From Candidatus Nomurabacteria bacterium (GTDB taxonomy: Bacteria > Patescibacteriota > Minisyncoccia > Phycocordibacterales > UBA918): a stretch of DNA of 64,000 bases. This document shows, in pieces, positions 1 through 62,401 of the stretch; position 1 is the stretch's first letter; the number at the start of each line of letters is the position of its first letter. The notes below the pieces were generated by a model that saw nothing but the letters and a program-made list of their open reading frames with translations, was not told the origin of the DNA and ran no database searches. The position numbers were made by a program, and so were the translations under genes. The DNA is taken from contig JACKGF010000001.1 of the NCBI GenBank assembly GCA_020632095.1, forward strand, positions 70,549 through 134,548, read 5' to 3'.

Positions 1-74
1 ACAATATTTGAATGAAAGTGAAAGAAAGCGAAAGGCCGTAAATTAAAAAATATGATGTGATATTATATTCGAAT

Positions 75-254
75 ATGCAAATGTTCGGATTAGTATCTTT
101 ACTGCTCGTGATTGCTATAGCGGCCATGTGGTTGACTGCTGGTATGGGAGGGACAGTAACAGTGCAAAATGATGATGGTACGGTTACTACACAGTCTGGT
201 TACGTTGAGGCGGTTGATCAGGCGGAAGATGCGGCTAGGATGATGGAGCAGTAG
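75..254 (+). CDS. small hydrophobic protein, hypothetical. The ORF track starts at GTG 57; the first ATG is at 75.
   Basis: ORF of 60-65 aa with one predicted TM segment (GLVSLLLVIAIAAMWLTAG), followed by a hairpin terminator at 268-308. Confidence 0.3.
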   Translation: MQMFGLVSLLLVIAIAAMWLTAGMGGTVTVQNDDGTVTTQSGYVEAVDQAEDAARMMEQ

Positions 255-267
255 TATTTTGATTGTG

Positions 268-308
268 GAAATAGGTGGGGACGTTTTGCGAACCCACCTA
301 TTTTAATT
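268..308 (+). terminator. rho-independent terminator
   Basis: Stem gaaataggtggg / cccacctatttt with a 13-nt loop, followed by a T-run (ttttaattt). Confidence 0.45.
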
Positions 309-335
309 TGTCAATAATAATGCTAAGCTGAAGTC

Positions 336-527
336 ATGAAAATCATCAAATGCTACAATTGCGATTTGATTTTAAAAGCAAAAACTAAGCAAGAGATGTT
401 AAACCAACTCTATCTACACTACATGTCTGAGCATGAAAAAGTCATTCTTGGTGCAGACACAACTAAAAAAAAGCTTTGGATGGAAAAGTTTAACAAAGAT
501 TGGTCTGAAGCGCCCAAAGCCGAATAG
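336..527 (+). CDS. hypothetical small protein (63 aa)
   Basis: ATG-initiated ORF with Lys-rich sequence and a CxxC motif (CYNC) near the N-terminus. No family recognised. Confidence 0.3.
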   Translation: MKIIKCYNCDLILKAKTKQEMLNQLYLHYMSEHEKVILGADTTKKKLWMEKFNKDWSEAPKAE

Positions 528-604
528 GCGATAGTGCAAATTTATTGATTTCGGGTGTGTTACAATTTGTTAAGTTCATATAGATATCAGTCTAATTTAC
601 TATA

Positions 605-632
605 TTGCACATTTATTTTAATGTGTTATAAT
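605..632 (+). promoter_or_regulatory. sigma70-like promoter upstream of the CorC/CNNM gene
   Basis: -35 element ttgcac (605-610), 16-bp spacer, extended -10 element tgt-tataat (624-632). The ATG lies 25 nt downstream. Confidence 0.4.
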
Positions 633-656
633 CTGACAAATTTGATTCAATAATAA

Positions 657-1646
657 ATGGAATACTTAATATCGCTAGTCTTAGTGATTTTATCAGGGCT
701 CTTTTCGGGCTTAACACTAGGACTACTTTCACTCGACACACAGTCGTTACAGCGTCGTGCCAACCATGGAGACGCCCAAGCCGCCAAAATTTATCCAATT
801 AGACAGAAGGGTAATCTTTTGCTAACTACTCTTCTCTTGGGTAATGTTACTGTTAACACCACTCTTTCAATATTTTTAGGCAGTATTGCTTCTGGTTTAG
901 TAGCTGGCTTAACCGCTACTACTTTAATTGTTTTGTTTGGTGAAATATTCCCACAAGCCATTATTTCTAGACACGCTCTGTGGTTTGGATCAAGAACTAT
1001 TTGGTTTACAAAAGTGACCATTTTTGTATTTTATCCAATTGCTTGGCCAATTTCTAAAATATTGGATCATTTCTTAGGTAAAGAGTTACCAACTACTTAT
1101 ACAAGTAGAGAGCTGATGGATATTATCTCTGAACACGAAGATTCTGAGCATAGTACAATTGATGCTGATGAGGAGCGGATTGTGCACGGAGCACTGCAAT
1201 TTTCACATCTACGTGTACGAAATGTTATGACTGAAGCTGATCAGGTGGTTATGTGTGACGAGAACCAGCGACTAAACGACGATTTCTTTATTGAGATTAA
1301 TGGCTCTGGGTTTTCAAGAATACCAGTCTTCAGTGGTAATAGAAATAATATTGTTGGTATCTTGTACGTCAAAGATCTACTGATTGAACATGAGGATATT
1401 TCTGTTAAGGACACTGAAGAGGCTTTTGAAAAAGGTTATCTGAGAGTGAAAGGAGGGGAGTTGCTTGACTCTGTATTGGCTAAAATGTTGAAGTCAAAAC
1501 AACATATGGCGATTGTGAAGAATCAAAATAATCAATTCATTGGAGTTATTTCACTAGAAGACATTATAGAAGAAATTATTCAGCAAGAGATTGAAGATGA
1601 GGATGACGATGATGAATCTGAAGAAGAATTGATTGTAGGGAAATAA
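657..1646 (+). CDS. CNNM/CorC-family transporter-associated protein (DUF21 transmembrane domain + CBS pair + acidic C-terminal tail)
   Basis: N-terminal multi-TM DUF21/CNNM-type region, followed by two CBS-like segments (RVRNVMT..., IPVF...IVGILYVKDLL) and a D/E-rich tail. This is the typical TlyC/CorC architecture. Confidence 0.85.
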   Translation: MEYLISLVLVILSGLFSGLTLGLLSLDTQSLQRRANHGDAQAAKIYPIRQKGNLLLTTLLLGNVTVNTTLSIFLGSIASGLVAGLTATTLIVLFGEIFPQAIISRHALWFGSRTIWFTKVTIFVFYPIAWPISKILDHFLGKELPTTYTSRELMDIISEHEDSEHSTIDADEERIVHGALQFSHLRVRNVMTEADQVVMCDENQRLNDDFFIEINGSGFSRIPVFSGNRNNIVGILYVKDLLIEHEDISVKDTEEAFEKGYLRVKGGELLDSVLAKMLKSKQHMAIVKNQNNQFIGVISLEDIIEEIIQQEIEDEDDDDESEEELIVGK

Positions 1647-1650
1647 TAAA

Positions 1651-1682
1651 AAAGTGGACTGCATCGCAGTCCACTTTTTTAT
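1651..1682. terminator. bidirectional rho-independent terminator between convergent genes
   Basis: Perfect 12-bp stem aaagtggactgc / gcagtccacttt with a 3-nt loop, flanked by an A-run upstream and a T-run downstream. Confidence 0.6.
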
Positions 1683-1688
1683 TATTTC

Positions 1689-2384
1689 CTATACCCCCAG
1701 CTCTTTAAGTAGAGTTTCAAGCTCTATTCCCTGAATCTTCCGATATTGATTAGGTTTAAGTTTTTCGAGTGTGATATTAACGATCCTGACTCGCTTTAAT
1801 GATTGAACCTGATATCCAAGTGCCGCACACATGCGACGAATTTGGTGCTTTTTACCTTCAGTAATAATGATTGAAAAACGCTTGTCGTTACGGGGATTGG
1901 CTATAATTGTTGATGGTTTAGTGCGATATCCTTCTATATCAACGCCGGCTTCCATAGCGCGCTTAAACATACCTGAGAGTGGCTTGTCTACCAAGACGTC
2001 ATACTCTTTTTCATTATTTCGATCTGGTTCTAGTAGCGGGCCGGTTATGCGACCGTCATTAGAGAGAATAATCAAGCCTTCTGAGTCCTTATCAAGGCGA
2101 CCAACTGGGGCTACGTGAGTAATGCCATAGTCTTTAGCTAGACGGGTAGCGATATCAATCTCGCCAGCGGCTGGGGAGTGGGTAATGATACCGCGGCCTT
2201 TGTAATAGGCTAGGTAGGATTTTGATTTGGTTTTTCCAACTATTTCAACCTCATCAGTCTCTTCAACTTGTTGACCCATTTGGGCTTTTTTACCATTAAT
2301 TTTAACCTTCCCTTGTTCAATCAGAGTGTCTGACTCACGTCTTGAAGCCACGCCAGTGTGGGCGAGGTATTTGTTGATACGCAT
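1689..2384 (-). CDS. RsuA/RluB-family pseudouridine synthase (S4 domain + PSUS domain). The ORF extends to 2417; the likely start is ATG 2384 (MRINKYLA...).
   Basis: N-terminal S4 RNA-binding signature (MRINKYLAHTGVASRRESDTLIEQGKVKING) and a catalytic-aspartate region (VGRLDKDSEGLIILSNDG), collinear with E. coli RsuA. Confidence 0.8.
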   Translation of the reverse strand: MRINKYLAHTGVASRRESDTLIEQGKVKINGKKAQMGQQVEETDEVEIVGKTKSKSYLAYYKGRGIITHSPAAGEIDIATRLAKDYGITHVAPVGRLDKDSEGLIILSNDGRITGPLLEPDRNNEKEYDVLVDKPLSGMFKRAMEAGVDIEGYRTKPSTIIANPRNDKRFSIIITEGKKHQIRRMCAALGYQVQSLKRVRIVNITLEKLKPNQYRKIQGIELETLLKELGV

Positions 2385-2577
2385 CGGAAATTCCATAAGA
2401 CTTTGATTATAACACAAACAATTTTATTTGGCAACTTTTTCAAAAAAAGCAGTAAGAGAGGTTTTTGTATGTGTAATAAGGATTGGTTGAAGGTTTTGCT
2501 CTATATAAAAGAAAAAGCAGCGTCAGGGGTGTTATCCTGTCGCTGCTGTTGCCGGTTTATTCAACCGGAAAATGCTT

Positions 2578-3474
2578 CTACTTCGTTTTCGCGGCCTTGC
2601 CATTGCTGGTGCCCTTCATGCTGTTGCGCACCAGTTTGGCTTCGTCCGAGCGTTGACCCTTCTTACGCAGGTAGGCTGCGGGAGGTCCCTTTTTATCGTT
2701 GCTGGGCGTAGCGTCGGACGACACACCGCGGAACTGGAAGATGATGGCTGTCGAGTCATTGACGCCGTCGAGCATGTTGAAGACTTGCTTGCGCATGTCT
2801 TGCGTCATTGACAACTGACAGCCGGCCAGGTAGCGCCGAACGATGTCACGAGCTTCCACGTTCCCGATGACGCAGTCGAGATAATCGATCATGCCCTCGA
2901 GGAAGGTTTTGTCCGTGACGTTGTCGCCGTACCAGCCCTCGGCCAAGAGGACGCGAGTCGCAGCCATACTGGCGACGGTCAGGTTCTGTTGAACCAATTT
3001 GCCGTCGGTGCACATGATTTGCGACACGGAGCCGTTATTCAAAAGCACGTTCAGGTATTGACCTTCGGTGAACTGGTACAGTCCGCGCATCGGGTTTGAT
3101 TGCATGATACTCTCCGCAGTGCCGTAAGCACCGACGGTGAACTTCTCCTCCCACGGCTTGTTGCTCTTGCTGAGGTCGATCATGACCATGAGCGCCGAGG
3201 GATTGGTGTCCGAAGGAGCGACGAAGGTCAAGAACGGCTTGCTGTCGAAACGCGGGGTCACCGTGAACATTGCCGTCGAGAGCATGTACCCGCCCATGGT
3301 GTGGCAAGGGTGGTGCTTGTCGATGCTGATGGAACGGGTGCCGAACGTGAGGCGGTTGCCGACCAAGTTGATACCGTTGGTCAGAACGCCGTCGTCGCCG
3401 ATCGTGAAGCAGTCGACTTGAACGTTGGCTGCTTTTTTGGCGGTCTGGGCGGCGGTCTTGGTGACTTGAGTCAT
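2578..3474 (-). CDS. hypothetical protein (298 aa) encoded by a GC-rich, foreign-looking gene. It has Lys-rich N- and C-terminal tails.
   Basis: This is the longest ORF in a roughly 950-bp GC-rich patch, with a strong C-ending codon bias unlike its neighbours. A canonical AAGGAG lies 7 nt upstream of ATG 3474 (the ORF track starts at TTG 3492). No family recognised. Confidence 0.55.
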   Translation of the reverse strand: MTQVTKTAAQTAKKAANVQVDCFTIGDDGVLTNGINLVGNRLTFGTRSISIDKHHPCHTMGGYMLSTAMFTVTPRFDSKPFLTFVAPSDTNPSALMVMIDLSKSNKPWEEKFTVGAYGTAESIMQSNPMRGLYQFTEGQYLNVLLNNGSVSQIMCTDGKLVQQNLTVASMAATRVLLAEGWYGDNVTDKTFLEGMIDYLDCVIGNVEARDIVRRYLAGCQLSMTQDMRKQVFNMLDGVNDSTAIIFQFRGVSSDATPSNDKKGPPAAYLRKKGQRSDEAKLVRNSMKGTSNGKAAKTK

Positions 3475-3671
3475 GGTGAATCTCCTTTTCAAAGGTAAAA
3501 CCGTACTACGTTAAAGAGCTAACTTTTATACCTACTATCCTAGCACGCATCAGTGGATTTGTCAATAGAAACTGATTTGTTTTTCTGTCAAGACCAAGTT
3601 TAGAAAGGGGATTATGAGATACAAAAAAGCTTGTATCTGCATATAAATAATCGGTTTTCTGTAATTCATAT

Positions 3672-3714
3672 CAAAAAACAGGTGACTTAAGTAGCAAAAG
3701 CTACTTAAGTCACC
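3672..3714 (-). terminator. rho-independent terminator for the minus-strand gene 3765..4142
   Basis: Perfect 15-bp stem ggtgacttaagtagc / gctacttaagtcacc with loop aaaa. A T-run on the minus strand follows (A-run 3673-3679 on the plus strand). Confidence 0.5.
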
Positions 3715-3764
3715 GGTTAAATTTGGATGAATATGTTCCTTTTTATTTTTATTCGCTGTCGAGA

Positions 3765-4142
3765 CTACTCTGATTTTCGGATGACAAGATAGGTGAAGAG
3801 TCCGACTACGCTACCAACTATGACCCCCGCGCCAGTGACAACAACAAACATTGATGGAGTTCCTCCAGAGGTATATTGCCAAGCGAGTGAACTGACTGCT
3901 CCTCCAGTGACTGCACCAATAATTGTTCTTGCTCGGGCTGGGTGATTTCTGATCAGTCCGAGTATTTTTTTTGGAGTTGTGAGTAACGTGTAGCCACTTA
4001 TGAAATACACAGACAGCTCAGCCATTCCCATCGCTATTAGTATGATTACCACACCATGAATTAAACCGTAGCTCTCTGCTACAAAATACAAAGATAGTAC
4101 AACTACCAACAAGTAAGCTAATTGATGTGTATATTGTTTCAT
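3765..4142 (-). CDS. small integral membrane protein (about 4 TM), hypothetical
   Basis: A 125-aa ORF with four hydrophobic segments and its own terminator. Confidence 0.5.
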   Translation of the reverse strand: MKQYTHQLAYLLVVVLSLYFVAESYGLIHGVVIILIAMGMAELSVYFISGYTLLTTPKKILGLIRNHPARARTIIGAVTGGAVSSLAWQYTSGGTPSMFVVVTGAGVIVGSVVGLFTYLVIRKSE

Positions 4143-4295
4143 TGTTAGTCCTCTGTAGAAAGGAATGTCTCAATTTGAGAATTCAAATTGAGTGTACTGT
4201 AAAACAAATCTTATGTAACTATAGAAGTTTAGTGAGTGCAAGTCAAACAAACGACCATAGTAAGTGGTCGTTTGTTTGACGGTTTGATTTCTGTC

Positions 4296-4826
4296 TTAAA
4301 AACCAATCGCTGGGGTCAGGTAATACTGTAGTTCTGAGGGGTTGAGATGGGCTACAATGGTGTTTTTGCTATCAATCATGGTAAAGGGCAGGCGACTGAC
4401 TAGTAGGGAATAATCTTGGTTTGCGGTTTGCTCTGCTACTGGGACTTTTAGGAAGGTTACTAGGGTAAATTTGGCACCTTTACCGGCTGGTAGGTAATAT
4501 TGGTTGTCTTTAATGATAACGTCTTTATCTGTAGTGAAAGCTAGACTGGTAGTTTTTCCTTCTAGAATAGGTTCTTTTTCTTTATCCACTATCTTGTAAC
4601 CAATGTAGGGTGAATCGTCTGTCGCTTCAGTACCGCGGACAGCCCCGATTGGAATATATAATTCTCTGGTCGCAAACCCGAATTTATAGGTCACAGTGAA
4701 CATTATGGTTTCGTTGTTTATTCTTGTGGCGGTCTGGTCAGTGGTGAAATAGGCTTGTGAAATATTGGGTAATAAAAGCGCAAAAGCGAAAGTGCTGATA
4801 AATAGTTTCATTTTATTGATTTTCAT
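4296..4826 (-). CDS. secreted hypothetical protein (signal peptide)
   Basis: N-terminal MKINKMKLFISTFAFALLLPNISQA is a signal peptide. The rest looks beta-rich and matches no recognised family. Confidence 0.5.
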   Translation of the reverse strand: MKINKMKLFISTFAFALLLPNISQAYFTTDQTATRINNETIMFTVTYKFGFATRELYIPIGAVRGTEATDDSPYIGYKIVDKEKEPILEGKTTSLAFTTDKDVIIKDNQYYLPAGKGAKFTLVTFLKVPVAEQTANQDYSLLVSRLPFTMIDSKNTIVAHLNPSELQYYLTPAIGF

Positions 4827-4851
4827 GCGACTATTTTACTACATCTAGATT

Positions 4852-5436
4852 ATGGAACAACTACTGCAACTACCACCCAGTGATGAAGAATTGGTAAAAA
4901 AGACCCTAGAAGACAAAAACTTCTTTGGTGAGCTTGTTGATCGGTATGAAGCCAAGTTGACTCGTTATATAAATCGGCTCGGGATTCGTAATCCGGATGA
5001 TCAATTAGATGTTTTGCAGGAAATCTTTTTGAAAACCTACCGCAATCTAAATGCTTTTGATTCTTCATTAAAATTTTCCTCTTGGGTATACCGGATAGCG
5101 CACAACGAAGCTATTAGCTGGTACCGTAAAAAGAATGTCAGACCCGAAGGACATCTAATCGCGGAAAGTGAGGAAATTATTTCTTTTTTGTCGGCGGGGG
5201 AGGAAGTGGCTGATGTGGCTTTTGATAAATCTATCAATGCTAGTGTAGTTAACGAGGCTTTGGCTAAAATTGACGATAAATACCGCGAGGTATTGATCTT
5301 GCGCTTTTTTGAGCATAAGGAGTACGACGAAATATCTGACATTTTAAAAATACCAGTTGGCTCGGTCGGAACTCTGATTCATCGTGGCAAAAAACAATTA
5401 GCCAATGTCCTAAACCCAGATGCCTTACGTATATAA
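4852..5436 (+). CDS. ECF-subfamily RNA polymerase sigma-70 factor (sigma-24 type)
   Basis: Region 2 (LQEIFLKTYRNLNAFD...FSSWVYRIAHNEAISWYRKK) and region 4 HTH (REVLILRFFEHKEYDEISDILKIPVGSVGTLIHRGKKQL). Confidence 0.85.
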   Translation: MEQLLQLPPSDEELVKKTLEDKNFFGELVDRYEAKLTRYINRLGIRNPDDQLDVLQEIFLKTYRNLNAFDSSLKFSSWVYRIAHNEAISWYRKKNVRPEGHLIAESEEIISFLSAGEEVADVAFDKSINASVVNEALAKIDDKYREVLILRFFEHKEYDEISDILKIPVGSVGTLIHRGKKQLANVLNPDALRI

Positions 5437-5450
5437 GAACAAGAAACATT

Positions 5451-6371
5451 ATGAATTCTGAAACTCAACAATCAAAAAAACCACTTAAAGAAACGCTTTT
5501 TGCTCGGATTGAGGAGGGTAATGTATGTCCGCGTTCCAGATGGGTTTATTTCTGTCAGGAGTGTATGGTGTGGACGGCGTGGGTGATTTCGGTTTTGATT
5601 GGTTCGCTCGCGGTAGCAATTTCTGTTTTTGTGGTGACTCATCACCAGTATGCATTATATGAAGCAACCCATGAGAATTTCCTGACTTTTATGGTTGAGG
5701 TGTTGCCTTACGTGTGGCTGATCGCTTTTGCTGTCATGGTTTATGTAGCGGTGTTTAATCTTAGACACACAAAACACGGTTATCGATATTCAATTACAAT
5801 GATTTTGTCGAGTAGTATAATATTAAGTTTTGCTGGAGGTTCAGCTTTGCAGTATTTTGGTCTTGGTTATCAGATTGATAATATTTTAGGTTATCAAATG
5901 TCGATGTATATGTCTCAAGACAAATTGGAAAGAAAGATGTGGCAAGCGCCAGAAGAAGGACGATTGGTGGGGAAACAAGTAGCCAAGACTGTTGCGTCAA
6001 CTACGATAGTTATTTTTGAAGATATGATGGGTGACCGGTGGCAGATGAATATTAGTGAATTGTCTGACTTAGATATGGAACATCTTGCTTCTGGACAAAC
6101 TGTGCGGTTGCTGGGAGAAGCTACTAATTCAGAATTCAAAATATTTCATGCCTGTGGCGCTTTTCCTTGGATGGTGAATGTTTCAGTCGACGAAATGAGC
6201 AAAGAGAGACAAATATTTGTTGAACAATTATATACACACATGAAAAAAGAAGAACAAAGGTTAGCTTTGATTGAAGAAATGGAGAAAGAAAGTGACCAAG
6301 ATGCTATGCCGATATTTCGCAGTGTTTGCGCCAATATTGCCGCCGCTAGACGAATGCCTGCTCGACAATAG
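5451..6371 (+). CDS. membrane protein co-transcribed with the ECF sigma factor; putative anti-sigma factor
   Basis: Starts 15 nt after the sigma gene stop. It has a 45-aa cytoplasmic N-terminus with a Cys cluster (CPRSRWVYFCQEC), then several TM helices. The anti-sigma role is inferred from position only. Confidence 0.4.
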   Translation: MNSETQQSKKPLKETLFARIEEGNVCPRSRWVYFCQECMVWTAWVISVLIGSLAVAISVFVVTHHQYALYEATHENFLTFMVEVLPYVWLIAFAVMVYVAVFNLRHTKHGYRYSITMILSSSIILSFAGGSALQYFGLGYQIDNILGYQMSMYMSQDKLERKMWQAPEEGRLVGKQVAKTVASTTIVIFEDMMGDRWQMNISELSDLDMEHLASGQTVRLLGEATNSEFKIFHACGAFPWMVNVSVDEMSKERQIFVEQLYTHMKKEEQRLALIEEMEKESDQDAMPIFRSVCANIAAARRMPARQ

Positions 6372-6528: not shown

Positions 6529-9411
6529 ATGAATATTACTTCCCTTACTCATCGTAATGTTTCCGCGCGATTTTTTGCGGGAATAACTATCTTATCGTTA
6601 TTAATGAGTGCCGTGCCAGTAGCTTTTTATACGGCAACGGCTGCTACAGATTTGGTTGGTCCAGCTAGTAAAACTATTAATGCTACCGACCCTTATGGGT
6701 CTGGCGTAGTGGATGCTTCAGTTTTTTCAAACCTTACTTTTTCGTTTGATTATGACTCAACTGAACTAGATGGTACTGACGATAGTTTCACTTATGGTTG
6801 GAGGGATGCTGGTGGTGACAAAGATCTTGGCACAGTGGTTGGCTTGGTAGGAGCGACAGCGGCTGAGATTGATTCAATATCGGTACCGCTACCTGCTGAG
6901 GCTTTGGTGGCTGATCTGGAAGTGTATGTCTACTCAACAGCGATTCCTGGTAATGAAAGTGATGAAGTTAAGTTGAGTAATATTTTGGTAGCAGGTGATT
7001 TGACTCCTGTGCCAGTAACTGCTGAACTAAGGATTGTAAAAGAGGTAGCAGGAGGCACAGCAGTGCCGGCTGATTGGGAAATGACCGCTACGGCCGATGG
7101 AAATGAGTATGATTTTACAGACAATGGAGATTCTGAGGAATTTCACGCGGTTGCAGCTGATTTGCCTTATATAATGAGTGAGTCTGAAGTGGCCGACTAT
7201 GAACTAACTTCGATTGAGTGTGATGGTGGAACTCAAGATGGTTCCGAAATAACTCTAGCAGAGGACGAGTCTGTAACATGTGTTTTCATAAATACATACA
7301 AAGTGATAGAAGTGATAGATGATACAGAAGATACGGTAGTTTATGGATGTATGGACGAGACTGCTAATAATTACAACGCTGACGCAACTGAAGCGGGAGA
7401 AGTTGTGTGTACTTATGATGAAGATACTGAGGATGAAGGTTCAAACGAAGAAGATAATGGTGGAGGTAACAACAACGGAGGATATGATTGGTCTTTGTGT
7501 GAAGACGGGCCTGATTGGCTTGATAATCCATACTGGGCTCATCCAGGCAAGAAAAAAGATGGTAGTGACATAACTGATCCAAATCGAACCAACCCAAATG
7601 TTGTTCTTGGTGAACCAGATTGGACCAGTGGTGGTATAACTGGTTTCTATTCACTAGGATTTGGCGGTTTCTTCATTGTTGATTTCTACAACTACGTACT
7701 TGACGTTGATGGGGTCGACCTAACTATTCATGAAGCCACTAACGGTAATTATCCGTTAGAACAAGCTGAGGTGTGGGTGAGTCAGACGGGTGGAGATTGG
7801 AAGTATGTTGGTCTAGCTGATAATACAGCTCCGGACCGAGTGACAAGTCTTGATTTCTCAAACACAGGCCTGCCGTGGATTCAGTTTGTGAAGTTGGTAG
7901 ACGTGTCTGATCCCGACCTACACAATAATGACGCTGACGGCTTTGACCTAGATGCTGTGGGAGCCACTATGGCTGTCTGTAGTGAACCGGGAAAGGTTTG
8001 TCCAGATGATGAATGTTTGGCTGAAGTGGAAGCTCGGGTGGTGCTTCAAGCTGGGGAGGTGATTGCAAATAATGGAGATGGTAATCTTAAACCACAAGTG
8101 ATTTTGGGTGACGGTTCAGTCGTGCCTTTTGGACAATGGTTTAAGTTATCTGAAGCTCAAAATCCGGGTGATTCAGCCGAATGGATTGATGACCCAAGTA
8201 CTGTGACTGATTACGCAAATCCTGAGGATTTGGAAGGGTTGTTTGTTAGTCGGGAAGGAAATGGGAAGGTTAGAGTAGCTTTGTATGGCTTCCACAACCC
8301 AGGCGGAGACGCAAATTACGAATCTTTGCGGGCAACTATTGAATTTAATGATGCAACTGTGAAGAGTGGAGCAACTCATCAAATCAATGGTAATTTCAAG
8401 CTTGAAAACCACTCTGAAACAGATAAAGTGGTCTCAAACGATAACTTCGATTCATTTTCAGAATTAGAAGATTTGACTGGGGTTGACTTCGATTTCTGGG
8501 TTGATACAAAAGCTGATGGAATTGTGGTTACACTAGACGACGAAAAGGCGGTTGAGTGCGATGACGATACAGACCCGCGCGACCCGGTAGATGATAATGA
8601 AGAAACCTACCTGATTGGTGGTTACAAATATGAAGTTGACGGTGAGAATAATACTCCTAAGGCTGGCTGGAATATCTATGCCTATAATAACGATGACGCA
8701 ACCTCACTAGCGACTACTACAGATAGTAATGGTGCCTATTACTTTGATGTTGAGGCGGGGGACTGGGAAATTACTGAAGAAGTACTAGCTGACTGGGATC
8801 AGGTTTCAGTTTGGCAAAATGGCGAAATTGTAGAAACAGAAGGCGAAAATGTTGGTTATTGTGAATTTGATTTATTTTCTGAAGAAGGCTTTTATCACTG
8901 TGACTTCTACAACGAATACGTCGGCTCGTCTGACGACGATAACGGAGACGAAGATGTGAATGAAAATGATGAAGGTGATAGCAGTAATGACGAGGATACA
9001 AATCGAAGAGGTGGATCAAGTTCAGGAACTAAACTACGTCACACAACTCAAGTTCCAACTCCAACTCCAACTCCTTACGTACTCGGAGCTTCAACTTCGC
9101 AGTGTGGAATGCTGTTGCATGATTACATGAAGATTGGTTCTGTTAATAAACCTTACGAAGTGAGAATGTTGCAATATTTCCTAAACGGACAAGGATTTTA
9201 CGTACCGGTGACCGGATTCTTTGGTCCGCTGACAGATAAAGCTGTTAAAGATTTCCAAATGTCATATCAAGCTGAAGTGCTCACCCCTTGGCAAAAAGCC
9301 GGTATTGTTGACCACAACAATCCAACCGGATATGAATACTTGTTGACTAGATGGAAGATAAATAATATTTTCTGTCCGGGTAGTGAACCACTACCAGAAT
9401 TGGTTCCGTAG
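6529..9411 (+). CDS. large secreted acidic surface protein with a C-terminal peptidoglycan-binding (PG_binding_1-like) domain. The ORF track starts at TTG 6460; the first ATG is at 6529.
   Basis: Signal anchor MNITSLTHRNVSARFFAGITILSLLMSAVPVAFYTATAA. The body is D/E/T-rich and beta-rich, followed by a TPTPTPTP linker. The C-terminus (VRMLQYFLNGQGFYVPVTGFFGPLTDKAVKDFQ) matches the PG_binding_1 consensus. Confidence 0.6.
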   Translation: MNITSLTHRNVSARFFAGITILSLLMSAVPVAFYTATAATDLVGPASKTINATDPYGSGVVDASVFSNLTFSFDYDSTELDGTDDSFTYGWRDAGGDKDLGTVVGLVGATAAEIDSISVPLPAEALVADLEVYVYSTAIPGNESDEVKLSNILVAGDLTPVPVTAELRIVKEVAGGTAVPADWEMTATADGNEYDFTDNGDSEEFHAVAADLPYIMSESEVADYELTSIECDGGTQDGSEITLAEDESVTCVFINTYKVIEVIDDTEDTVVYGCMDETANNYNADATEAGEVVCTYDEDTEDEGSNEEDNGGGNNNGGYDWSLCEDGPDWLDNPYWAHPGKKKDGSDITDPNRTNPNVVLGEPDWTSGGITGFYSLGFGGFFIVDFYNYVLDVDGVDLTIHEATNGNYPLEQAEVWVSQTGGDWKYVGLADNTAPDRVTSLDFSNTGLPWIQFVKLVDVSDPDLHNNDADGFDLDAVGATMAVCSEPGKVCPDDECLAEVEARVVLQAGEVIANNGDGNLKPQVILGDGSVVPFGQWFKLSEAQNPGDSAEWIDDPSTVTDYANPEDLEGLFVSREGNGKVRVALYGFHNPGGDANYESLRATIEFNDATVKSGATHQINGNFKLENHSETDKVVSNDNFDSFSELEDLTGVDFDFWVDTKADGIVVTLDDEKAVECDDDTDPRDPVDDNEETYLIGGYKYEVDGENNTPKAGWNIYAYNNDDATSLATTTDSNGAYYFDVEAGDWEITEEVLADWDQVSVWQNGEIVETEGENVGYCEFDLFSEEGFYHCDFYNEYVGSSDDDNGDEDVNENDEGDSSNDEDTNRRGGSSSGTKLRHTTQVPTPTPTPYVLGASTSQCGMLLHDYMKIGSVNKPYEVRMLQYFLNGQGFYVPVTGFFGPLTDKAVKDFQMSYQAEVLTPWQKAGIVDHNNPTGYEYLLTRWKINNIFCPGSEPLPELVP

Positions 9412-11399: not shown

Positions 11400-14300
11400 A
11401 TGAGACGATCGACCGTCGGTTTTTGTGTAATGTTATTGGCTGTTTTTGGTGTCACGGCTGTTACGCTCCAACCAGATTTTGTCATTCAAGATTTTACCTT
11501 ACGTTCTTCACCTATTCCAGCTATCCTCTATCAACAACCTCTCCTGCAAGCCTCCAGCAACGTACCTACCCCAACCCCAGCTTCCAATCTGGTCTCGATT
11601 CAGTCTCAAGGAGTTACTCAAGCCGATCTCAACAATCGTATTACCGGTCTACTTCTACATATGCACTGGTTATTGAATGATAGAGGACAATCAGCTACTG
11701 TCTCTACCACTCGCACTAACTCTTCCGAATCAAAACGAATCGACCGTCTCGAACGCCAAATCTTCAGTTTCATGGACGAATCAGACGATGATCGCTCAGA
11801 CTTGTCTGACGATATCACTAACGGTGGCTCTTTCCTCAATCCAACTCTCACTACAGCTACTCTCAATGGCACCACCACCGCCGGAGCATTCATTGTGAAT
11901 GGTCGGCTCGGCGTCGGTACTTCTTCACCAGTCGAGCGACTATCAATCAACGGCGCTGTCTATCTAGCCGACACCACTCCCACCAACTCCGCCTCCCGTC
12001 TATACAACACCGCTGGTGGTCTCTATTGGAATGGTTCCTTAGTTGCTGGTGGAGCAGTTGGTAGCTGGACTGGTAGTGGTGGTAATGTTTATCGAGCGAG
12101 TGGGAATGTGGGGATTGGGACGAGTGCACCTGACAAGTTGTTGCATATAAAATCACAGTCCGGTGTTTATCGGTCCCAGATTAGTATAGATGATTCCGCT
12201 AATAATAGTGGATATGCGCGGATAGATTATAATACTGATGATTCAATAAGCTGGAATGCCGGTGTTTATTCAACAAATAGTAGTCCAGATAGAGGGTTTG
12301 CTGTTTCAAATAATTATTCTGGATGGAAGGATCTGCTTAGTGTGAGCCCAAATGGTAATGTTGGCATCGGCACCACCTCATCCCTTGCCAAACTCTCTGT
12401 TAAAGGCAGTGGAACCGGCACCGGCCGTGCTTTTAGTATTACTGATTCTACCAACGTAGAAAAGTTCACTGTGCTGGATAATGGGAAAGTTGTACTGAGT
12501 GGTCGGCAGACTATATACAACGCCGACGCAACTGGTTTTTTAAACTCACTGTACTTTGGTGACGGAGGAGGAAGTTTGTCTCATACATCAGGTAGTGAAG
12601 GGTACGACAATACAGCTGTAGGTATAGGTGCTCTTTATTTTAATACTATTGGTTCTAGTAATACTGCAAATGGCTTAAATAGTTTGTACAGTAACACTAC
12701 AGGCAGTAATAACTCTGCAAATGGCGTAAATAGTTTATTTTATAATACTACAGGCAACAACAATACGGCCAATGGATTCCGTACATTGGAAGCAAACACT
12801 ATCGGTTATAACAATACCGCCAATGGAGCGTATGCTCTTTTGCTTAATACGACCGGAAGCCAAAATACAGCGAACGGTATAACCTCTCTCTATTCTAATA
12901 CCACAGGTTCTAACAACGTGGCTAATGGTATGGAGTCTCTCTACTGGAATACCGTAGGTTACGACAACACTTCAAATGGCGCATATTCACTTTACTTCAA
13001 CATCACTGGTTATTCCAATACCGCAAATGGAAAGCATGCACTTTACTCTAACACTTCTGGATATTACAACACAGCAAACGGAGTTAATGCCGGTCGTTAT
13101 CTTGCAGACGGCACAACAGCCAACCAAACTTCAAGCAACTCCGTGTTTGAGGGTTATGACACCAGAGCTTTAACTGCTAGTGGAACAAATGAAATCGTCA
13201 TTGGAGCCAGCGCCATTGGAAACGGAAGTAACAGCGCCACTCTGGGTAACGATTCTATAACAAAGACGATATTGAAAGGGAGTGTAGGCATCGGCACCAC
13301 TTCACCCCTCGCCAAGCTCTCTGTTACAGGCAGTGGTACCGGCACCGGCCGCGCTTTTAGTATCACTGATTCTGCTAATGCAGAAAAGTTCACTGTACTG
13401 GATAATGGGAATTTAGGGATTGGGACGTCAGTGCCAGAAGGTAAACTCACAGTGAACGGTTCTACAAGTGATACTCCTGGGTCAAATTCACTCTTAACTC
13501 TGTACGCAGGTACTGGGAAATGGGTACAGCGAATTGATTCATCTGGTAACTTAAATTTTGATTCCAACAACGGTGCTAGTATGTACTCCTGGGTGACGAT
13601 AAATAGAGTTGGCAACGTCGGCATCGGCACCACTTCACCCCTCGCCAAACTCTCTGTTAAAGGCAGTGGTACCGGCACCGGCCGCGCTTTTAGTATTACT
13701 GATTCTACCAACGTAGAAAAGTTCACTGTACTGGATAATGGGAATGTGGGGATTGGTACTTCAATTCCTACTGTTCCTTTAGAAGTAATAGCAAAAAGTC
13801 TTAATAAAGGATTGAGAATAACTCGTGACTCCACCAATAACAGTACATTGGAATTTGCAGAAATCGGTGGCATACAGGCGCGTATTTATGGTATCGGTGC
13901 ATCGTCTGCAGGACAGATGGCTTTCCTTACTGGGTCTGGGGGTGGATCTGAGGCAATGAGAATTACTGATACAGGCAATGTTGGTATAGGTACTTCAAGT
14001 CCTAAGACTGCCCTACAAGTCGGAGTGTCAACAGATAATTACGGAGTTTCAGCCTTCACTAAATTGTATACTTCGGGAGGCGGGATACGTGTCGGTTCAG
14101 CGTCTGGGAGCGATTATGGTTATAGAATCGTGAGGGATCCAGGAAGTATATTTGCTCCGGAGTTAAACGGGGATCTTGTATTCATCGGTGATCAAGCGAA
14201 TTCTTTTGGTAATTATGCGTTTTTAAACCAATCAGGCAGTGTTCTCTTAAGAATCCTTGGTGGTGGCAACGTCGGCATCGGCACCACCTCACCCCTTGCT

Positions 14301-16604
14301 AAGCTCTCTGTTAAAGGCAGTGGTACTGGCGCTGGCCGTGCTTTTAGTATCACCGATTCTGCTAATGTTGAAAAATTCACTGTGTTGGATAATGGGAATG
14401 TTGGGATTGGGGCTTCCGTCCCTGGAGCAAAACTAGATATTATTGATGAGTCTCAGCAAGGGTTGCTAACGGCGTTGCGACTAGGAGGTCAAGTTGCCGA
14501 TGATGGGGGTCGTTCTATTGATTTTAGTACGGCAAGTGCACTGAATACTTTTCTTACTGGCGCTCGAATTTCTGGGGTAAGGCACGGCGGTGCTTGGGGG
14601 TCACTCAGATTTTCTACACTAGGAGCTGACGGTCTCCAAGAGCGAGTCCGGTTTAGTCCAGATGGTAGTGTTGGTATTAGTACGACAACTCCGAATGCAA
14701 GACTTTCGATTGTGGGGTCTGGTGCTTCGGTTGTTACCAAGGCACTTCTTGTTTCGGATTCGAATAATGTGCCTTATGTTGTTGCGCATGATGAAGGGGG
14801 AGTTACTATTGGAAAACAAATGATTGTCACTTCCTTGTATACACTTGATGTTGGTGGTTCAGGCGATCAGTTTATTCGGTTAAAATCAATGGATAATGCT
14901 GGAAACGCTGGTGTTAATTTTAGTGGCGCAGGAGACAGGGGTTCCATTTATGGAACATTCGACTACAATATTAAAATAGAACCTAATGCACAGTATGGTT
15001 ATGCAGATGTGATTATAAATCCCAAAAATGGAAGCGCTACTCGGCTTGGTATACTCGATTCAACCCCTGACTTCGGTATTGAATCAGCCGCCACTTCCTC
15101 AAAAGGGTATTTCGGTATTTCGTCTACAGCCGGTGCTGATGGCGATATTTTCATGATTGATCCGAGTGGGAATATGGGAGTTGGGACGACTAGTCCAGGG
15201 GCGAAGTTGGATGTTGCAGGTAATGTATTGTTAGGACGAGGTGGCTTAATAGATACTCAACGCACTCTTTCAATAACTGGGGCAAAGCAAAGCTCTGGTG
15301 CAGACTACGCTCGTGTCGACTTTAAGAACTACGATCAAAATGGATCGTTAGGTGAATATGTTGGTGCCAGAATTAGTTCAGAAAATGCTGCTGGAGCAGA
15401 ATACGGCGACTTACGCTTTTGGACCCGCTCATCAACAATGCGAACCAATCCAGATATGATACTAAATAGTGCAGGAAACGTCGGCATCGGCACCACTTCA
15501 CCACTTGCCAAACTCTCTATTGCTGGTAATGGAACCGGCACCGGCCGCGCTTTTAGTATTACTGATTCTACCAACGTAGAAAAGTTCACTGTACTGGATA
15601 ATGGGAATGTGGGGATTGGGACAACGACGCCGGGGGCTAAGTTGGCAATTAGTGGCGGTAATATTAGGCTTGATAGTGATAGGAAACTTGAGTGGAATTA
15701 TGGATGGGAATATCTTTATGCAAATACATCTTCGGGAAACATCACTGCTTCTGTGAGAACAGGTTTAATTGTTAATGCGGACAACAACGATAACGACCTT
15801 CCTACGCATGTTGAATTTTCGGTACGATCAGGAAGTGCATTATCGGAGTTGTTTAGAATACAAAAGAACGGTAACGTCGGCATCGGGACCACCTCCCCCA
15901 ACAGCGCCCTCGACGTCATTGGTACTATTCAAGCTTCAAACCTACTCGGTGGGGCGGTCAATCTCACCACTGACGCCAACGGAAACATTATACGCGACCC
16001 ATCTGACGCTCGATTGAAGGAAAACATTCAAGAAATCTCTAATCCTCTCGATAAACTACTTAGTCTTCATGGTGTCTCGTATCAATGGAAAGACAAAGAG
16101 CGCTTTGGTGAACAGACAGAAATCGGATTTATTGCTCAAGAAGTTGACTCAATCCTACCTGAAGTAGTGCGCAAAGGCGGTGAATACTTCTCCCTCAACA
16201 CCCGCAACATTTTAGCGGTGGTAATAGAAGGCTTTAAGGAATTGTACGCCAAAGTAATGAGAAATTCCGATAAGATTGATTTGCTTGAACAGCAAAATGC
16301 ATCTTTAGAGCAAAATAATGTCGAACTAGAAACCCGACTCGAAGCCCTGGAAGCTCAGCTAAATGTTACTCCACCGGCACCGGTAGTGGTAGAAGATGAA
16401 GATGAACCGGAACAAGAAGAAACGAATCAGGATGAAGGGTCTGATAGTGCGAACCAAGAGGAAACAGAAGTTGCTGAAGAAGATGGTCTCGAGCCGATAG
16501 AAATAGTTCAAGATGAAGTGGAAGAAGAAACGCCCGCACTTACTACAGAGGAGCCTGAGGCGGATGAAGCTGAAGTTGTGCCAGAGACTGAAATTTCTGA
16601 ATAG
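11400..16604 (+). CDS. 1734-aa phage tail-fibre-like repeat protein with a C-terminal peptidase-S74 intramolecular chaperone domain, then a coiled coil and an acidic tail
   Basis: The repeated motif NVGIGTTSPLAKLSVKGSGTGTGRAFSITDSTNVEKFTVLDNGNVGIGT occurs at least 6 times. The C-terminal signature DARLKENIQEISNPLDKLLSLHGVSYQWKD...EIGFIAQEVDSILPEVV matches PF13884 / peptidase S74. Confidence 0.75.
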   Translation: MRRSTVGFCVMLLAVFGVTAVTLQPDFVIQDFTLRSSPIPAILYQQPLLQASSNVPTPTPASNLVSIQSQGVTQADLNNRITGLLLHMHWLLNDRGQSATVSTTRTNSSESKRIDRLERQIFSFMDESDDDRSDLSDDITNGGSFLNPTLTTATLNGTTTAGAFIVNGRLGVGTSSPVERLSINGAVYLADTTPTNSASRLYNTAGGLYWNGSLVAGGAVGSWTGSGGNVYRASGNVGIGTSAPDKLLHIKSQSGVYRSQISIDDSANNSGYARIDYNTDDSISWNAGVYSTNSSPDRGFAVSNNYSGWKDLLSVSPNGNVGIGTTSSLAKLSVKGSGTGTGRAFSITDSTNVEKFTVLDNGKVVLSGRQTIYNADATGFLNSLYFGDGGGSLSHTSGSEGYDNTAVGIGALYFNTIGSSNTANGLNSLYSNTTGSNNSANGVNSLFYNTTGNNNTANGFRTLEANTIGYNNTANGAYALLLNTTGSQNTANGITSLYSNTTGSNNVANGMESLYWNTVGYDNTSNGAYSLYFNITGYSNTANGKHALYSNTSGYYNTANGVNAGRYLADGTTANQTSSNSVFEGYDTRALTASGTNEIVIGASAIGNGSNSATLGNDSITKTILKGSVGIGTTSPLAKLSVTGSGTGTGRAFSITDSANAEKFTVLDNGNLGIGTSVPEGKLTVNGSTSDTPGSNSLLTLYAGTGKWVQRIDSSGNLNFDSNNGASMYSWVTINRVGNVGIGTTSPLAKLSVKGSGTGTGRAFSITDSTNVEKFTVLDNGNVGIGTSIPTVPLEVIAKSLNKGLRITRDSTNNSTLEFAEIGGIQARIYGIGASSAGQMAFLTGSGGGSEAMRITDTGNVGIGTSSPKTALQVGVSTDNYGVSAFTKLYTSGGGIRVGSASGSDYGYRIVRDPGSIFAPELNGDLVFIGDQANSFGNYAFLNQSGSVLLRILGGGNVGIGTTSPLAKLSVKGSGTGAGRAFSITDSANVEKFTVLDNGNVGIGASVPGAKLDIIDESQQGLLTALRLGGQVADDGGRSIDFSTASALNTFLTGARISGVRHGGAWGSLRFSTLGADGLQERVRFSPDGSVGISTTTPNARLSIVGSGASVVTKALLVSDSNNVPYVVAHDEGGVTIGKQMIVTSLYTLDVGGSGDQFIRLKSMDNAGNAGVNFSGAGDRGSIYGTFDYNIKIEPNAQYGYADVIINPKNGSATRLGILDSTPDFGIESAATSSKGYFGISSTAGADGDIFMIDPSGNMGVGTTSPGAKLDVAGNVLLGRGGLIDTQRTLSITGAKQSSGADYARVDFKNYDQNGSLGEYVGARISSENAAGAEYGDLRFWTRSSTMRTNPDMILNSAGNVGIGTTSPLAKLSIAGNGTGTGRAFSITDSTNVEKFTVLDNGNVGIGTTTPGAKLAISGGNIRLDSDRKLEWNYGWEYLYANTSSGNITASVRTGLIVNADNNDNDLPTHVEFSVRSGSALSELFRIQKNGNVGIGTTSPNSALDVIGTIQASNLLGGAVNLTTDANGNIIRDPSDARLKENIQEISNPLDKLLSLHGVSYQWKDKERFGEQTEIGFIAQEVDSILPEVVRKGGEYFSLNTRNILAVVIEGFKELYAKVMRNSDKIDLLEQQNASLEQNNVELETRLEALEAQLNVTPPAPVVVEDEDEPEQEETNQDEGSDSANQEETEVAEEDGLEPIEIVQDEVEEETPALTTEEPEADEAEVVPETEISE
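12357..12485 (+). repeat. intragenic near-identical ~130-bp direct repeat, copy 1
   Basis: The sequence aatgttggcatcggcaccacctcatcccttgccaaactctctgttaaaggcagtgg...ctggataatggg is shared at over 90% nucleotide identity with copies 2-5. Confidence 0.8.
13284..13409 (+). repeat. intragenic ~130-bp repeat, copy 2
   Basis: Near-identical to copy 1. GC content is higher than the surrounding gene body. Confidence 0.8.
13614..13755 (+). repeat. intragenic ~130-bp repeat, copy 3
   Basis: Near-identical to copy 1. Confidence 0.8.
14268..14410 (+). repeat. intragenic ~130-bp repeat, copy 4
   Basis: Near-identical to copy 1. Confidence 0.8.
15477..15620 (+). repeat. intragenic ~130-bp repeat, copy 5. 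A partial sixth copy lies at about 15876-15905.
   Basis: Near-identical to copy 1. Confidence 0.8.
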
Positions 16605-20490: not shown

Positions 20491-20961
20491 TTACATTTTG
20501 CTATAAAATTCTGCCAACTCCTCGTAAACATGTTTCTTTAATTTGGTAGTGTTTGCGATAGCTTCGGGAAAAGTAGTCCAGCGGAAGTCAGAAAATTCAT
20601 CGTCGGTTGCCTCGGACAAGTTAATTTCTTTGTCAGGCTTTAGTTCTAAAAAGAACCAGCGGTGGGCTTGGCCAAAGCGGGAAATAGTGGAATCAATTAC
20701 AGAGTTGTCATCTTGATAAACTGTCCACCTAGGCATTTCAATAACAGATGAAAAGTCTTCAATCGTGAGCCCAACCTCTTCTTTAAGTTCTCTCCACAGT
20801 GTCTCTTCTACACTCTCACCAAGATCAACTCCTCCCTGTTGGAACTGCCAGACACCAATTGGATAGGCAGCTCTTTGAAACAAGGCCACTTCATTCTTTT
20901 GATTATAAATAACCGTTCCTACTCCAGCTCTAAAAAATCGAGTGCTCATAGAGTGAAGCAT
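20491..20961 (-). CDS. NUDIX hydrolase, RppH-like (RNA pyrophosphohydrolase family)
   Basis: Nudix box GGVDLGESVEETLWRELKEEVGL. The WQFQQGG and RWFF motifs are collinear with E. coli RppH. Confidence 0.75.
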   Translation of the reverse strand: MLHSMSTRFFRAGVGTVIYNQKNEVALFQRAAYPIGVWQFQQGGVDLGESVEETLWRELKEEVGLTIEDFSSVIEMPRWTVYQDDNSVIDSTISRFGQAHRWFFLELKPDKEINLSEATDDEFSDFRWTTFPEAIANTTKLKKHVYEELAEFYSKM

Positions 20962-25374: not shown

Positions 25375-25417
25375 TGCTCTAAATATTTAGTTGTCGACTA
25401 AGGTACAATGTATAGAC

Positions 25418-61445: not shown

Positions 61446-62399
61446 ATGAGATCTAACTTCCAAAAACTTTTGGTATTCAGCCTGTTGCTACCAGTGCTTT
61501 TTTTGAGTACGGGAGCATCAGAAGTATTTGCTGGATTTGGTATTACACCGCCTTATGTTAAGAATACAAGTCTGACGCGCAACTCTACATATGAGCAACA
61601 AATCCTTTTGGTAAGAGGGGAGACAAACATTGCGCAAAAGGCTGAAATTATTGTTGATGCTCCTGAAATCGCAGATTGGATTGAAGTGGTTGAAGGAGAC
61701 GAAATTAAGATGCCAAAAGGGGTTCAGAAAGTACCGATGACAGTTAGGGTTAAAGTGCCGAGTAATGCTGAGTTTAAAGACTACACAGGTTCGATTCGTA
61801 TTCGTACTTTACCTGATGATGATCAAGTGGCGGCAGGTGCGGTTAGCATCTCGCTCGGAGCTTTGGTTGATATTAGGTTATCAGTTATTGATAAAAAAAT
61901 TAAAGATTTTAGAGTAAGAAGAATCTCAGCTCCAGATTTAAATGCCGGACACAAATTACTTTGGATGTTTTTCCCTGGTAAAATTCGATTTGATATGTTG
62001 ATTGAAAATACTGGTAATGTAGACATTTCACCGTCTAAAGTTGAATTCAGAATTTTTGACCGAGCGGGAAAGGTACTGTTAGAAGAAACCAAGAATCTAG
62101 GAAAAATTAAAGAAATAGCTCCCTATGCTACAGAAAGTGTTGTGGCTGAATTACCAACCCGCCTGCCTGCTAATGGTTACATAGCGAGATACAAGATCTA
62201 TAACGGAGATGATATAAAGCAGGAAGGCGATTTAAGTCTTAATATTTTGCCGTACGGCACTCTTCAGCTGGCAGGATTTGGATTCTTTGGACTCTCAATT
62301 GCACACAAGATTTCAATATTACTCCCAGTATTTGCCTTAATGATTGCAGGTTTATACGTATGGCATGCCCGTCGAAAAAAGAAACTGGAGATTGTATAA
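61446..62399 (+). CDS. surface protein with signal peptide and C-terminal TM anchor plus basic tail; hypothetical. The ORF track starts at TTG 61440.
   Basis: Signal MRSNFQKLLVFSLLLPVLFLSTGASEVFA, a beta-rich ectodomain, and a C-terminal TM ILLPVFALMIAGLYVWHARRKKK. Similar architecture to 23858..24946. Confidence 0.5.
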   Translation: MRSNFQKLLVFSLLLPVLFLSTGASEVFAGFGITPPYVKNTSLTRNSTYEQQILLVRGETNIAQKAEIIVDAPEIADWIEVVEGDEIKMPKGVQKVPMTVRVKVPSNAEFKDYTGSIRIRTLPDDDQVAAGAVSISLGALVDIRLSVIDKKIKDFRVRRISAPDLNAGHKLLWMFFPGKIRFDMLIENTGNVDISPSKVEFRIFDRAGKVLLEETKNLGKIKEIAPYATESVVAELPTRLPANGYIARYKIYNGDDIKQEGDLSLNILPYGTLQLAGFGFFGLSIAHKISILLPVFALMIAGLYVWHARRKKKLEIV

Positions 62400-62401
62400 C
62401 T

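Follow-up and report, generated by a model that had tools for sequence, protein, structure and literature searches.

GC-rich synonymous sites in a long-resident, fast-evolving orphan gene of Paceibacteria

The 64,000-nt stretch analyzed here (the window; 'Candidatus Nomurabacteria bacterium', assembly GCA_020632095.1, contig JACKGF010000001.1, forward-strand positions 70,549 to 134,548) contains a GC-rich patch of single-gene size, and the whole of this patch is accounted for by one minus-strand coding sequence (CDS) for a 298-aa orphan protein, the target gene of this study. The gene has resided at its site for a long time, its family shares an excess of GC at third codon positions (GC3) and a common set of expression signals, and the mRNAs of its members are more structured than their own codon usage requires. 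With slightly better than even confidence, we interpret the synonymous sites of this resident, fast-evolving orphan gene of Paceibacteria as being under selection for an mRNA that is stable and well expressed.

The GC content of the CDS is 0.573, compared with a mean of 0.425 (sd 0.024, maximum 0.476) in 611 other windows of 897 nt (z = 6.1), and its tetranucleotide distance from the remainder (z = 8.1) is the maximum within the 64 kb. Third codon positions carry nearly all of the deviation, with a GC3 of 0.79 compared with 0.26–0.47 in the 24 other long open reading frames (ORFs) of the window, whereas GC at first (GC1, 0.50) and second positions (GC2, 0.42) is host-like; the third positions consist of C.505, G.288, T.117, and A.09, compared with T.41 and A.25 in the background. 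GC3 is 0.70–0.90 in each 30-codon block across the entire CDS, and GC content steps up and down within ~60 nt of the start and stop codons. Codons ending in a pyrimidine (NNY) carry C in ~88% of cases and those ending in a purine (NNR) carry G in only ~57%, with glutamine keeping CAA. In a set of 780 ORFs drawn from 68 Paceibacteria loci, no gene deviates more in GC3 than the window gene (99th percentile +0.198), and two further family members fall in the top ~1% of GC3 excess. These values confirm the original prediction of a GC-rich single-gene patch with C- and G-ending codons, and the tetranucleotide and codon-usage comparisons, both run within the 64-kb window, place its composition outside the range of the genome.

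The bias is old. In a sister species (locus L010, sample SRR12358675), a homologous protein (P0002) is encoded at the same position, followed by RluF (93% amino acid identity) and a convergent CNNM gene (91%), and the two target proteins are 31% identical. Nei-Gojobori (NG86) estimates of nonsynonymous (dN) and synonymous (dS) divergence between the two loci are 0.04 and 1.23 for RluF and 0.74 and 1.09 for the target gene, and dS is saturated for CNNM. The dN/dS ratio is ~0.7 for the target versus 0.03 for RluF, and the target evolves ~20 times faster. Third-position identity is 0.44 between the target copies and 0.59 for RluF, yet GC3 is 0.79 in the window copy and 0.76 in the L010 copy versus 0.37–0.44 in the neighbors. 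Since a positional ortholog is present and the flanking synonymous sites are saturated, residency exceeds one substitution per synonymous site. Over such a time the composition of a donor would have faded, and both copies still stand at 0.76–0.79; therefore, the GC3 bias is maintained. The 'recent' acquisition that had been suggested is not borne out.

The DNA around the CDS is far better conserved than the CDS itself. Flanks, promoter, leader, and terminator are 80–94% identical between the window and L010 (leader 80–88%, 3' end 94%), compared with a nucleotide identity of ~48% (42–54%) in the CDS, with abrupt edges. Because the regulatory DNA is conserved far above the level of neutral sites, expression of the target gene is under purifying selection. 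The same step in identity gave rise to the idea of a hypervariable cassette or allele replacement, which was dropped after NG86 showed saturated flanking synonymous sites; fast evolution in situ at a dN/dS of ~0.7 suffices, so allele replacement is not needed. Mutagenesis by a diversity-generating retroelement (DGR) was also rejected, as no template repeat and no reverse transcriptase were found: a blastn comparison of the gene region with the entire window returned only the region itself, and no reverse transcriptase occurs among the window ORFs scanned or with Pfam hits, with the distal ~5,800 aa of a giant ORF (described below) and short ORFs lying outside the scan. Within the CDS, a conserved island at the beginning of the basic tail includes 24 consecutive identical nucleotides over KGPPAAYL, written in the non-preferred codons GGA CCT CCC GCA, which points to a possible constraint at the nucleotide level.

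The GC3 excess is a property of a rare family. An exhaustive phmmer search of 1.84 billion representative proteins yielded 11 proteins, the best being P0002 (32% identical, E=1e-39) and the others ~300 aa in length with 24–36% identity across the aligned portion. The known family comprises about 12 clusters, all in Patescibacteria. The named homologs are hypothetical proteins of Kaiserbacteria or Patescibacteria, and a partial copy of the target protein is itself deposited as a hypothetical protein of Ca. Kaiserbacteria. Word-indexed homolog searches returned the query or known members only, GTDB and JGI scans for the family and a leader probe in JGI metagenomes returned nothing, and literature searches returned nothing. 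The target has no match in Pfam (best E=0.19), PHROGs, NCBIfam, PADLOC, or PDB sequences, so the protein indeed belongs to no recognized family; protein searches, which the original prediction had called for, gave homologs in Patescibacteria only.

In all 11 loci with neighbors, the family member exceeds its neighbors in GC3 (+0.43, +0.35, +0.25, +0.21, +0.19, +0.18, +0.15, +0.10, +0.07, +0.06, and +0.03), and the A content of third positions (A3) is 0.04–0.15 in every member. All members have a TTGACA...TGnTAnnAT promoter ~100 nt upstream, a 50–70-nt leader, a GGAG-type Shine-Dalgarno (SD) motif, and a strong terminator. The family occupies at least five chromosomal contexts. Four members divergently adjoin recG, where the members are 27–33% identical and RecG 66–81%, a synteny that indicates probable long vertical inheritance; others lie between recJ and rnhA, between an ExoIII-like and a DNA glycosylase gene, or between an RluD-like gene and rplS. 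In L093, an AT-richer segment ~4.5 kb downstream of the member (13387-16376) encodes a serine recombinase (Resolvase/Recombinase) together with a replication initiator of the Phage_CRI type; it is a small integrated element, probably unrelated to the family.

Excess mRNA structure accompanies the composition. Synonymous codons were permuted such that neither the protein nor the codon usage of the gene changed, and minimum free energies (MFE) were compared over 40 shuffles per gene. All 11 members were more stable than their shuffles (z −0.97 to −4.27, mean −2.86; −2.1 for the window gene), and eight of the 11 beat all 40. In 15 neighboring genes, the mean z was −0.27 (family versus neighbors, Mann-Whitney p=5e-5). 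Dinucleotide shuffles gave −2.9 for both alleles, compared with +0.9 and +2.1 for two neighbors. The ribosomal-protein (r-protein) genes L2, L3, L4, and L19 of related genomes reached −2.1, −3.2, −2.7, and −1.6 against synonymous shuffles. Additionally, GC3 enrichment makes the folding energy per nucleotide more negative, at −0.36 to −0.46 kcal/mol in the family versus −0.23 to −0.34 in most neighbors.

The target is a long-resident chromosomal gene of a 'Kaiserbacteria'-like member of the Candidate Phyla Radiation (CPR; Patescibacteria) and belongs to a rare orphan family. The protein evolves fast while the expression design stays fixed: each gene is transcribed alone from a near-consensus promoter with an extended −10 element, its open leader carries a strong SD motif, and a strong intrinsic terminator follows. 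The GC-richness, limited to synonymous sites and to the CDS, is a maintained family trait rather than the fingerprint of a donor. GC3 and the arrangement of synonymous codons together give a highly base-paired mRNA, with an excess of structure otherwise seen in the r-protein genes of these genomes. We propose that synonymous sites are selected for a compact, stable, and efficiently expressed mRNA, which would yield an abundant protein.

Several observations weigh against this interpretation. The z-scores come from predicted MFE values and from no more than 40 shuffles for each gene, and one control neighbor, the trypsin-like gene of L097, also has z=−2.7. The GC3 excess is small in the GC-rich host of L097 and in L093 and L092. 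The r-protein genes L2, L3, L4, L23, and L19 of two related genomes have GC3 of 0.37–0.47 and A3 of 0.23–0.32; because they are not GC3-rich, GC3 enrichment is not a general mark of high expression and needs a reason specific to the family. The two orthologs disagree in their codons, with isoleucine encoded by ATC in 100% of cases in one and by ATT in 70% in the other, and leucine codons also differ. In an Akashi-type test, the bias was no stronger at conserved residues (74% of codons ending in G or C, versus 78% elsewhere; p=0.29). Finally, abundance of the protein is read from sequence signals alone.

The excess structure may extend beyond this family. Other, unrelated GC3-rich and A3-poor orphan genes occur at L026 11717-12466, L025 6416-7129, L032 9479-9841, L037 4950-5318, L050 7191-7973, and L042 12056-12646, with a GC3 excess of up to +0.35 and with their own SD motifs and terminators, which suggests a possible recurring class of such genes in Paceibacteria. 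Most of the GC3-rich orphans noticed in these genomes were likewise more stable than their synonymous shuffles (−1.7, −3.7, −1.3, +0.2, −2.5, and −5.5). As a tentative extension, and one we hold with well under even confidence, Paceibacteria may possess a small class of self-contained 'mRNA-stability' orphan genes that are G/C-driven, A-depleted, and hyper-structured, of which this family would be the extreme case, encoding an unseen fold in an abundant, rapidly evolving, basic-tailed protein with an ancestral link to recG, which would act on DNA or RNA as a lineage-specific accessory protein of the nucleoid or of repair. If this were true, the compositional anomaly would mark post-transcriptional design rather than foreign origin.

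A gene-specific neutral process without selection on the mRNA, such as GC-biased gene conversion at a recombination hot spot or another local mutational bias, likewise counts against selection on the mRNA; of the alternatives it survives best, although we regard it as unlikely. In its favor, the bias is even over the length of the CDS and conserved residues show no stronger effect, codons ending in C and in G are both enriched, the gene diverges very fast, and other GC3-rich orphans occur sporadically in these genomes. However, GC1 and GC2 are not raised despite a dN/dS of ~0.7, and the enrichment ends at the start and stop codons, with a transcribed leader of 35% GC. The third-position shift is asymmetric between NNY and NNR codons, and the arrangement of codons gives structure beyond composition, an outcome not expected from a drive on composition. 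Within the species, four assemblies also show no variation.

A cargo cassette drawn from a GC-richer mobile gene pool of CPR bacteria, and delivered repeatedly into intergenic sites among housekeeping genes, is likewise improbable. The RluF-like neighbor places the window in Paceibacteria (Parcubacteria), and the nearest GTDB representative by RluF is 'Candidatus Kaiserbacteria bacterium HKST-UBA39' (86% identical); the isolate names of relatives suggest activated sludge as a possible source environment. In the ~10 closest reference genomes (RluF 72–86% identical), the gene order is anti-sigma, extracytoplasmic function (ECF) sigma, 176-aa secreted protein, RluF, and CNNM; the insertion (Table 1) is missing there, and the 176-aa gene abuts RluF. 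When the window is aligned with L011, a locus without the insertion, homology ends at ~4296 and restarts at ~2442, and the family hidden Markov model detected no member within 6 kb on either side of such empty loci in ~10 relatives. The ECF sigma, putative anti-sigma membrane protein, and divergent 176-aa secreted-protein genes form a conserved block (4296-6371 in the window, and loci L011-L021), which adjoins RluF in ~10 related genomes.

The patchy and rare distribution of the family (~12 clusters among billions of proteins), its varied contexts, and the self-contained unit of promoter, gene, and terminator would suit a cassette, as would the existence of other GC3-rich orphan units and, relative to the nearest relatives, the co-insertion with an unrelated membrane-protein gene. 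The insertion ends also carry a short imperfect direct repeat of 9 nt (GTCAAACAA / GCCAAATAA) overlapping the RluF −35 box. Against a cassette, synteny with recG is kept in four members that are only 27–33% identical and synteny with RluF in two, and the family is never multi-copy. No inverted terminal repeats and no clear target-site duplication were found at the insertion, no integrase or other mobility gene occurs there (the neighbors are housekeeping genes), the window contains no tRNA genes, and viral and plasmid collections have no match. Functional pairing with the co-inserted 125-aa gene was rejected, as this gene has no homolog in any related locus or beside other members, and the 161-aa neighbor of the L092 member is unrelated.

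Classical translational selection, in which a very highly expressed gene adopts tRNA-optimal codons, is a doubtful explanation. The near-total preference for NNC over NNU, the retained glutamine codon CAA, and the strong expression signals speak for it, but the five r-protein genes of two related genomes show no such preference, the Hsp20 gene in the window has a GC3 of 0.30, and the orthologs differ in their isoleucine and leucine codons. Selection for translational accuracy was rejected on the negative Akashi-type test. Thus, the differing isoleucine codons and the bias that is no stronger at conserved residues disfavor both tRNA adaptation and accuracy, and we return to selection on mRNA structure as the preferred interpretation.

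It is very unlikely that the gene was recently acquired from a virus or a high-GC bacterium and still shows the donor's composition, not yet ameliorated. The extreme composition with its tetranucleotide outlier, the absence of the 1.85-kb segment from the closest reference genomes, and the five or more chromosomal contexts are compatible with such an acquisition. However, GC3 alone deviates, exactly within the CDS, and the L010 gene at the same site still has a GC3 of 0.76 beside saturated flanking synonymous sites. Every detectable homolog is from Patescibacteria, and phage, plasmid, IMG/VR, PHROGs, and BFVD collections contain no relatives of the target, so the suggested viral or high-GC bacterial origin is not supported. 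Additionally, no integrase, tRNA, or inverted repeats accompany the segment, and no known family host reaches a GC3 of 0.79 except the GC-rich L097 and L098. A viral capsid or prophage remnant was rejected for want of a match in PHROGs, phage tblastn, IMG/VR, or BFVD, a plasmid origin because the sole match was a chance ParA (E=0.8), and a defense system because PADLOC gave no match. In sum, the original interpretation is supported in part: the composition is far outside the genome's range, the gene has its own SD and belongs to no known family, and the segment is an insertion relative to relatives, whereas a recent event, a viral or high-GC donor, and a chimeric contig are not supported.

An assembly chimera or a contaminant fragment stitched into a low-GC contig, which the abrupt GC change over a single-gene-sized stretch had raised, can be set aside with near certainty, because four independent assemblies carry the locus with both junctions, a diverged ortholog has the same synteny in a fifth sample, and the boundaries fall at a start and a stop codon, outside which lie a promoter and a terminator of the host type. 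The identical protein is encoded in four contigs from four samples and different assemblers, namely ERZ27248697 (93.7 kb) and ERZ28655230 from ENA and SRR14234111 and SRR12358676 from Logan. Each covers both junctions at 99.84–100% identity to the window. Of 22 single-nucleotide polymorphisms (SNPs) between the window and the 93.7-kb contig, none lies within 1-5420. Elsewhere, these SNPs include a cluster of seven in 39 nt (8458-8496) in a 983-aa SpaA_2/PG_binding surface protein and one of five in 60 nt (11709-11768) in a 1,734-aa Peptidase_S74 protein, which may be patches of local recombination or diversification in surface proteins.

Table 1. Features of the target locus in window coordinates.
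Feature	Position	Strand	Description
298-aa orphan protein CDS	3474..2578	minus	ATG 3474, TAG 2580-2578; GC 0.57, GC3 0.79
Promoter	3537..3565	minus	TTGACA, 17-nt spacer with TG, TAGGAT; 10/12 matches, extended −10; conserved in L010
5' leader	3475..3536	minus	~60 nt, 35% GC, unstructured (fold z=+0.6); SD AAGGAG at 3487-3482
Conserved internal island	2663..2712	minus	50 nt, 84% versus ~48% in rest of CDS; encodes DATPS..KGPPAAYLRKK
3' end	2505..2568	minus	Small hairpin 2568-2552, main terminator arms 2550-2536 and 2527-2513, T-run
Insertion	2443..4295		~1.85 kb, two transcription units; in window species and L010 (sequenced part)
Co-inserted 125-aa gene	3765..4142	minus	Predicted multi-pass membrane protein; host-like GC, own promoter and terminator
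Terminator hairpin of 125-aa gene	3681..3714	minus	Upstream of target promoter
RluF promoter	2434-2406	minus	Follows target terminator

The target gene forms a transcription unit of its own. It is monocistronic, since the 125-aa gene upstream ends in its own terminator, and its terminator region folds with an MFE of −26.9 kcal/mol (z=−5.7). The canonical SD that had been noted is present exactly 7 nt before the ATG. Most native genes were said to lack an SD, and an SD-like motif in any form was found in only 3 of 25 window ORFs, a count that is approximate since start codons were assigned mechanically. A structured RNA or riboswitch in the leader was ruled out by the absence of an Rfam match and by the unstructured leader. 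In many window ORFs, a TATAAT-like box abuts the ATG; at starts 9501, 11400, 20491, 20991, and 28323, it lies 5–10 nt before the ATG and no SD is present, which suggests that leaderless mRNAs may be widespread in this Paceibacteria genome. Our search of a literature library found nothing on this for Patescibacteria. Two of these starts belong to a DinB/IMS-family translesion polymerase gene (20991-22247) and a divergent NUDIX hydrolase gene (20491-20961), whose promoters both abut the start codons.

The family alignment yields a confident prediction of the protein fold. AlphaFold2 gave a predicted local distance difference test score (pLDDT) of 34 from the single sequence and of 81 from the 11-sequence family alignment, with a predicted template modeling score of 0.69. 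The model consists of a beta-rich domain (~20–165), a four- to five-helix bundle (~167–246), a disordered linker, and a long, basic C-terminal helix (266–286), and it has no fold match in PDB or BFVD. An N-terminal nucleophile hydrolase, raised by an 'NCF' motif and weak bile-salt-hydrolase rows in Foldseek, was rejected because the cysteine is not conserved (P0002, P0008, P0010) and the template modeling score is ~0.13. The Lys-rich termini noted earlier are real, with a charge of +3 in the N-terminal tail and +9 in the C-terminal tail. In all 10 full-length members, the ~55-aa C-terminal tail has a net charge of +9 to +14 and an isoelectric point above 10.3; it often ends in GGG..KKK, and the core is near-neutral or acidic. 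By inspection, there is no signal peptide, and the protein is likely cytoplasmic, ~300 aa long, and abundant. The basic tail and the recG, recJ-rnhA, and exoIII-glycosylase neighborhoods suggest a putative nucleic-acid-binding role. This is the weakest step of our interpretation, and its dependence on tail charge and neighborhood alone is to be counted with the points against it.

Other genes of the window are of separate interest. A giant ORF (30734-54133, plus strand; 7,799 aa) encodes DUF2341 repeats and a pentaxin-like domain in its first 2,000 aa and is one of the three window ORFs with an SD-like motif (GGAGG). Dockerin- or cohesin-domain proteins are encoded at 25391-27325, 28814-30355, and 62360-63505, which hints that a CPR bacterium may build a cellulosome-like system on its surface.

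Katz and Burge reportedly described that bacterial coding regions are selected for local secondary structure of the mRNA. Like highly expressed genes, the family has a strong promoter, an SD motif, and a terminator, and its mRNA structure excess is of the size seen in r-protein genes. However, the r-protein genes here are not GC3-rich, and the family adds a rise in GC3 and a low A3; the target protein, unlike typical products of such genes, evolves ~20 times faster (dN/dS) than its neighbors. The gene thus allows selection on mRNA properties to be tested in CPR bacteria, which grow slowly, largely lack SD motifs, and apparently use leaderless mRNAs.

Bacterial nucleoid-associated proteins with C-terminal tails rich in Lys, Arg, and Ala include chlamydial Hc1 and mycobacterial HupB/MDP1. 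The family resembles them in its likely abundance and in joining a neutral or acidic core to a ~55-aa tail with a net charge of +9 to +14, and its neighbors often act on DNA (recG, recJ, rnhA, exoIII-like, and glycosylase genes). It differs in that no resemblance in sequence or fold to HU, H1-like, or other folds of nucleoid-associated proteins was detected. Our results therefore flag an uncharacterized and probably abundant family that has no fold match and often lies beside recG.

Narrow-clade homologs, a dN/dS near 0.7, and the lack of a known domain are shared with ORFan genes. In contrast to ORFans, the target has a fold that is predicted confidently from covariation (pLDDT 81), its length, architecture, and tail are kept across the class, and its regulatory DNA is under strong purifying selection. 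Because of the predicted fold, the conserved architecture, and the constrained regulatory DNA, we consider the gene functional and under constraint rather than a young ORF that drifts. With DGR target genes, which are common in CPR bacteria, it shares the host group and a divergent protein in a conserved frame; it differs in that its divergence includes indels, runs through the entire CDS without being confined to adenines, and is accompanied by no within-species variation.

The closest comparison is with genomic islets acquired by horizontal transfer. The target shares with them the GC and tetranucleotide anomaly, the single-gene size, the absence from nearest relatives, and its own regulatory signals. 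It differs in that only synonymous sites deviate, and they deviate equally strongly in an ortholog more than one synonymous substitution per site away; its relatives are all in the same bacterial group, and mobility genes, tRNA genes, and a clear target-site duplication are absent. A GC anomaly confined to one gene is routinely taken as a sign of horizontal transfer or contamination, and for metagenome-assembled genomes of CPR bacteria such readings can cause contigs to be trimmed. The target gene is a counter-example: its anomaly is old, limited to synonymous sites, common to the family across hosts, and accompanied by the excess mRNA structure otherwise seen in the r-protein genes of these genomes.

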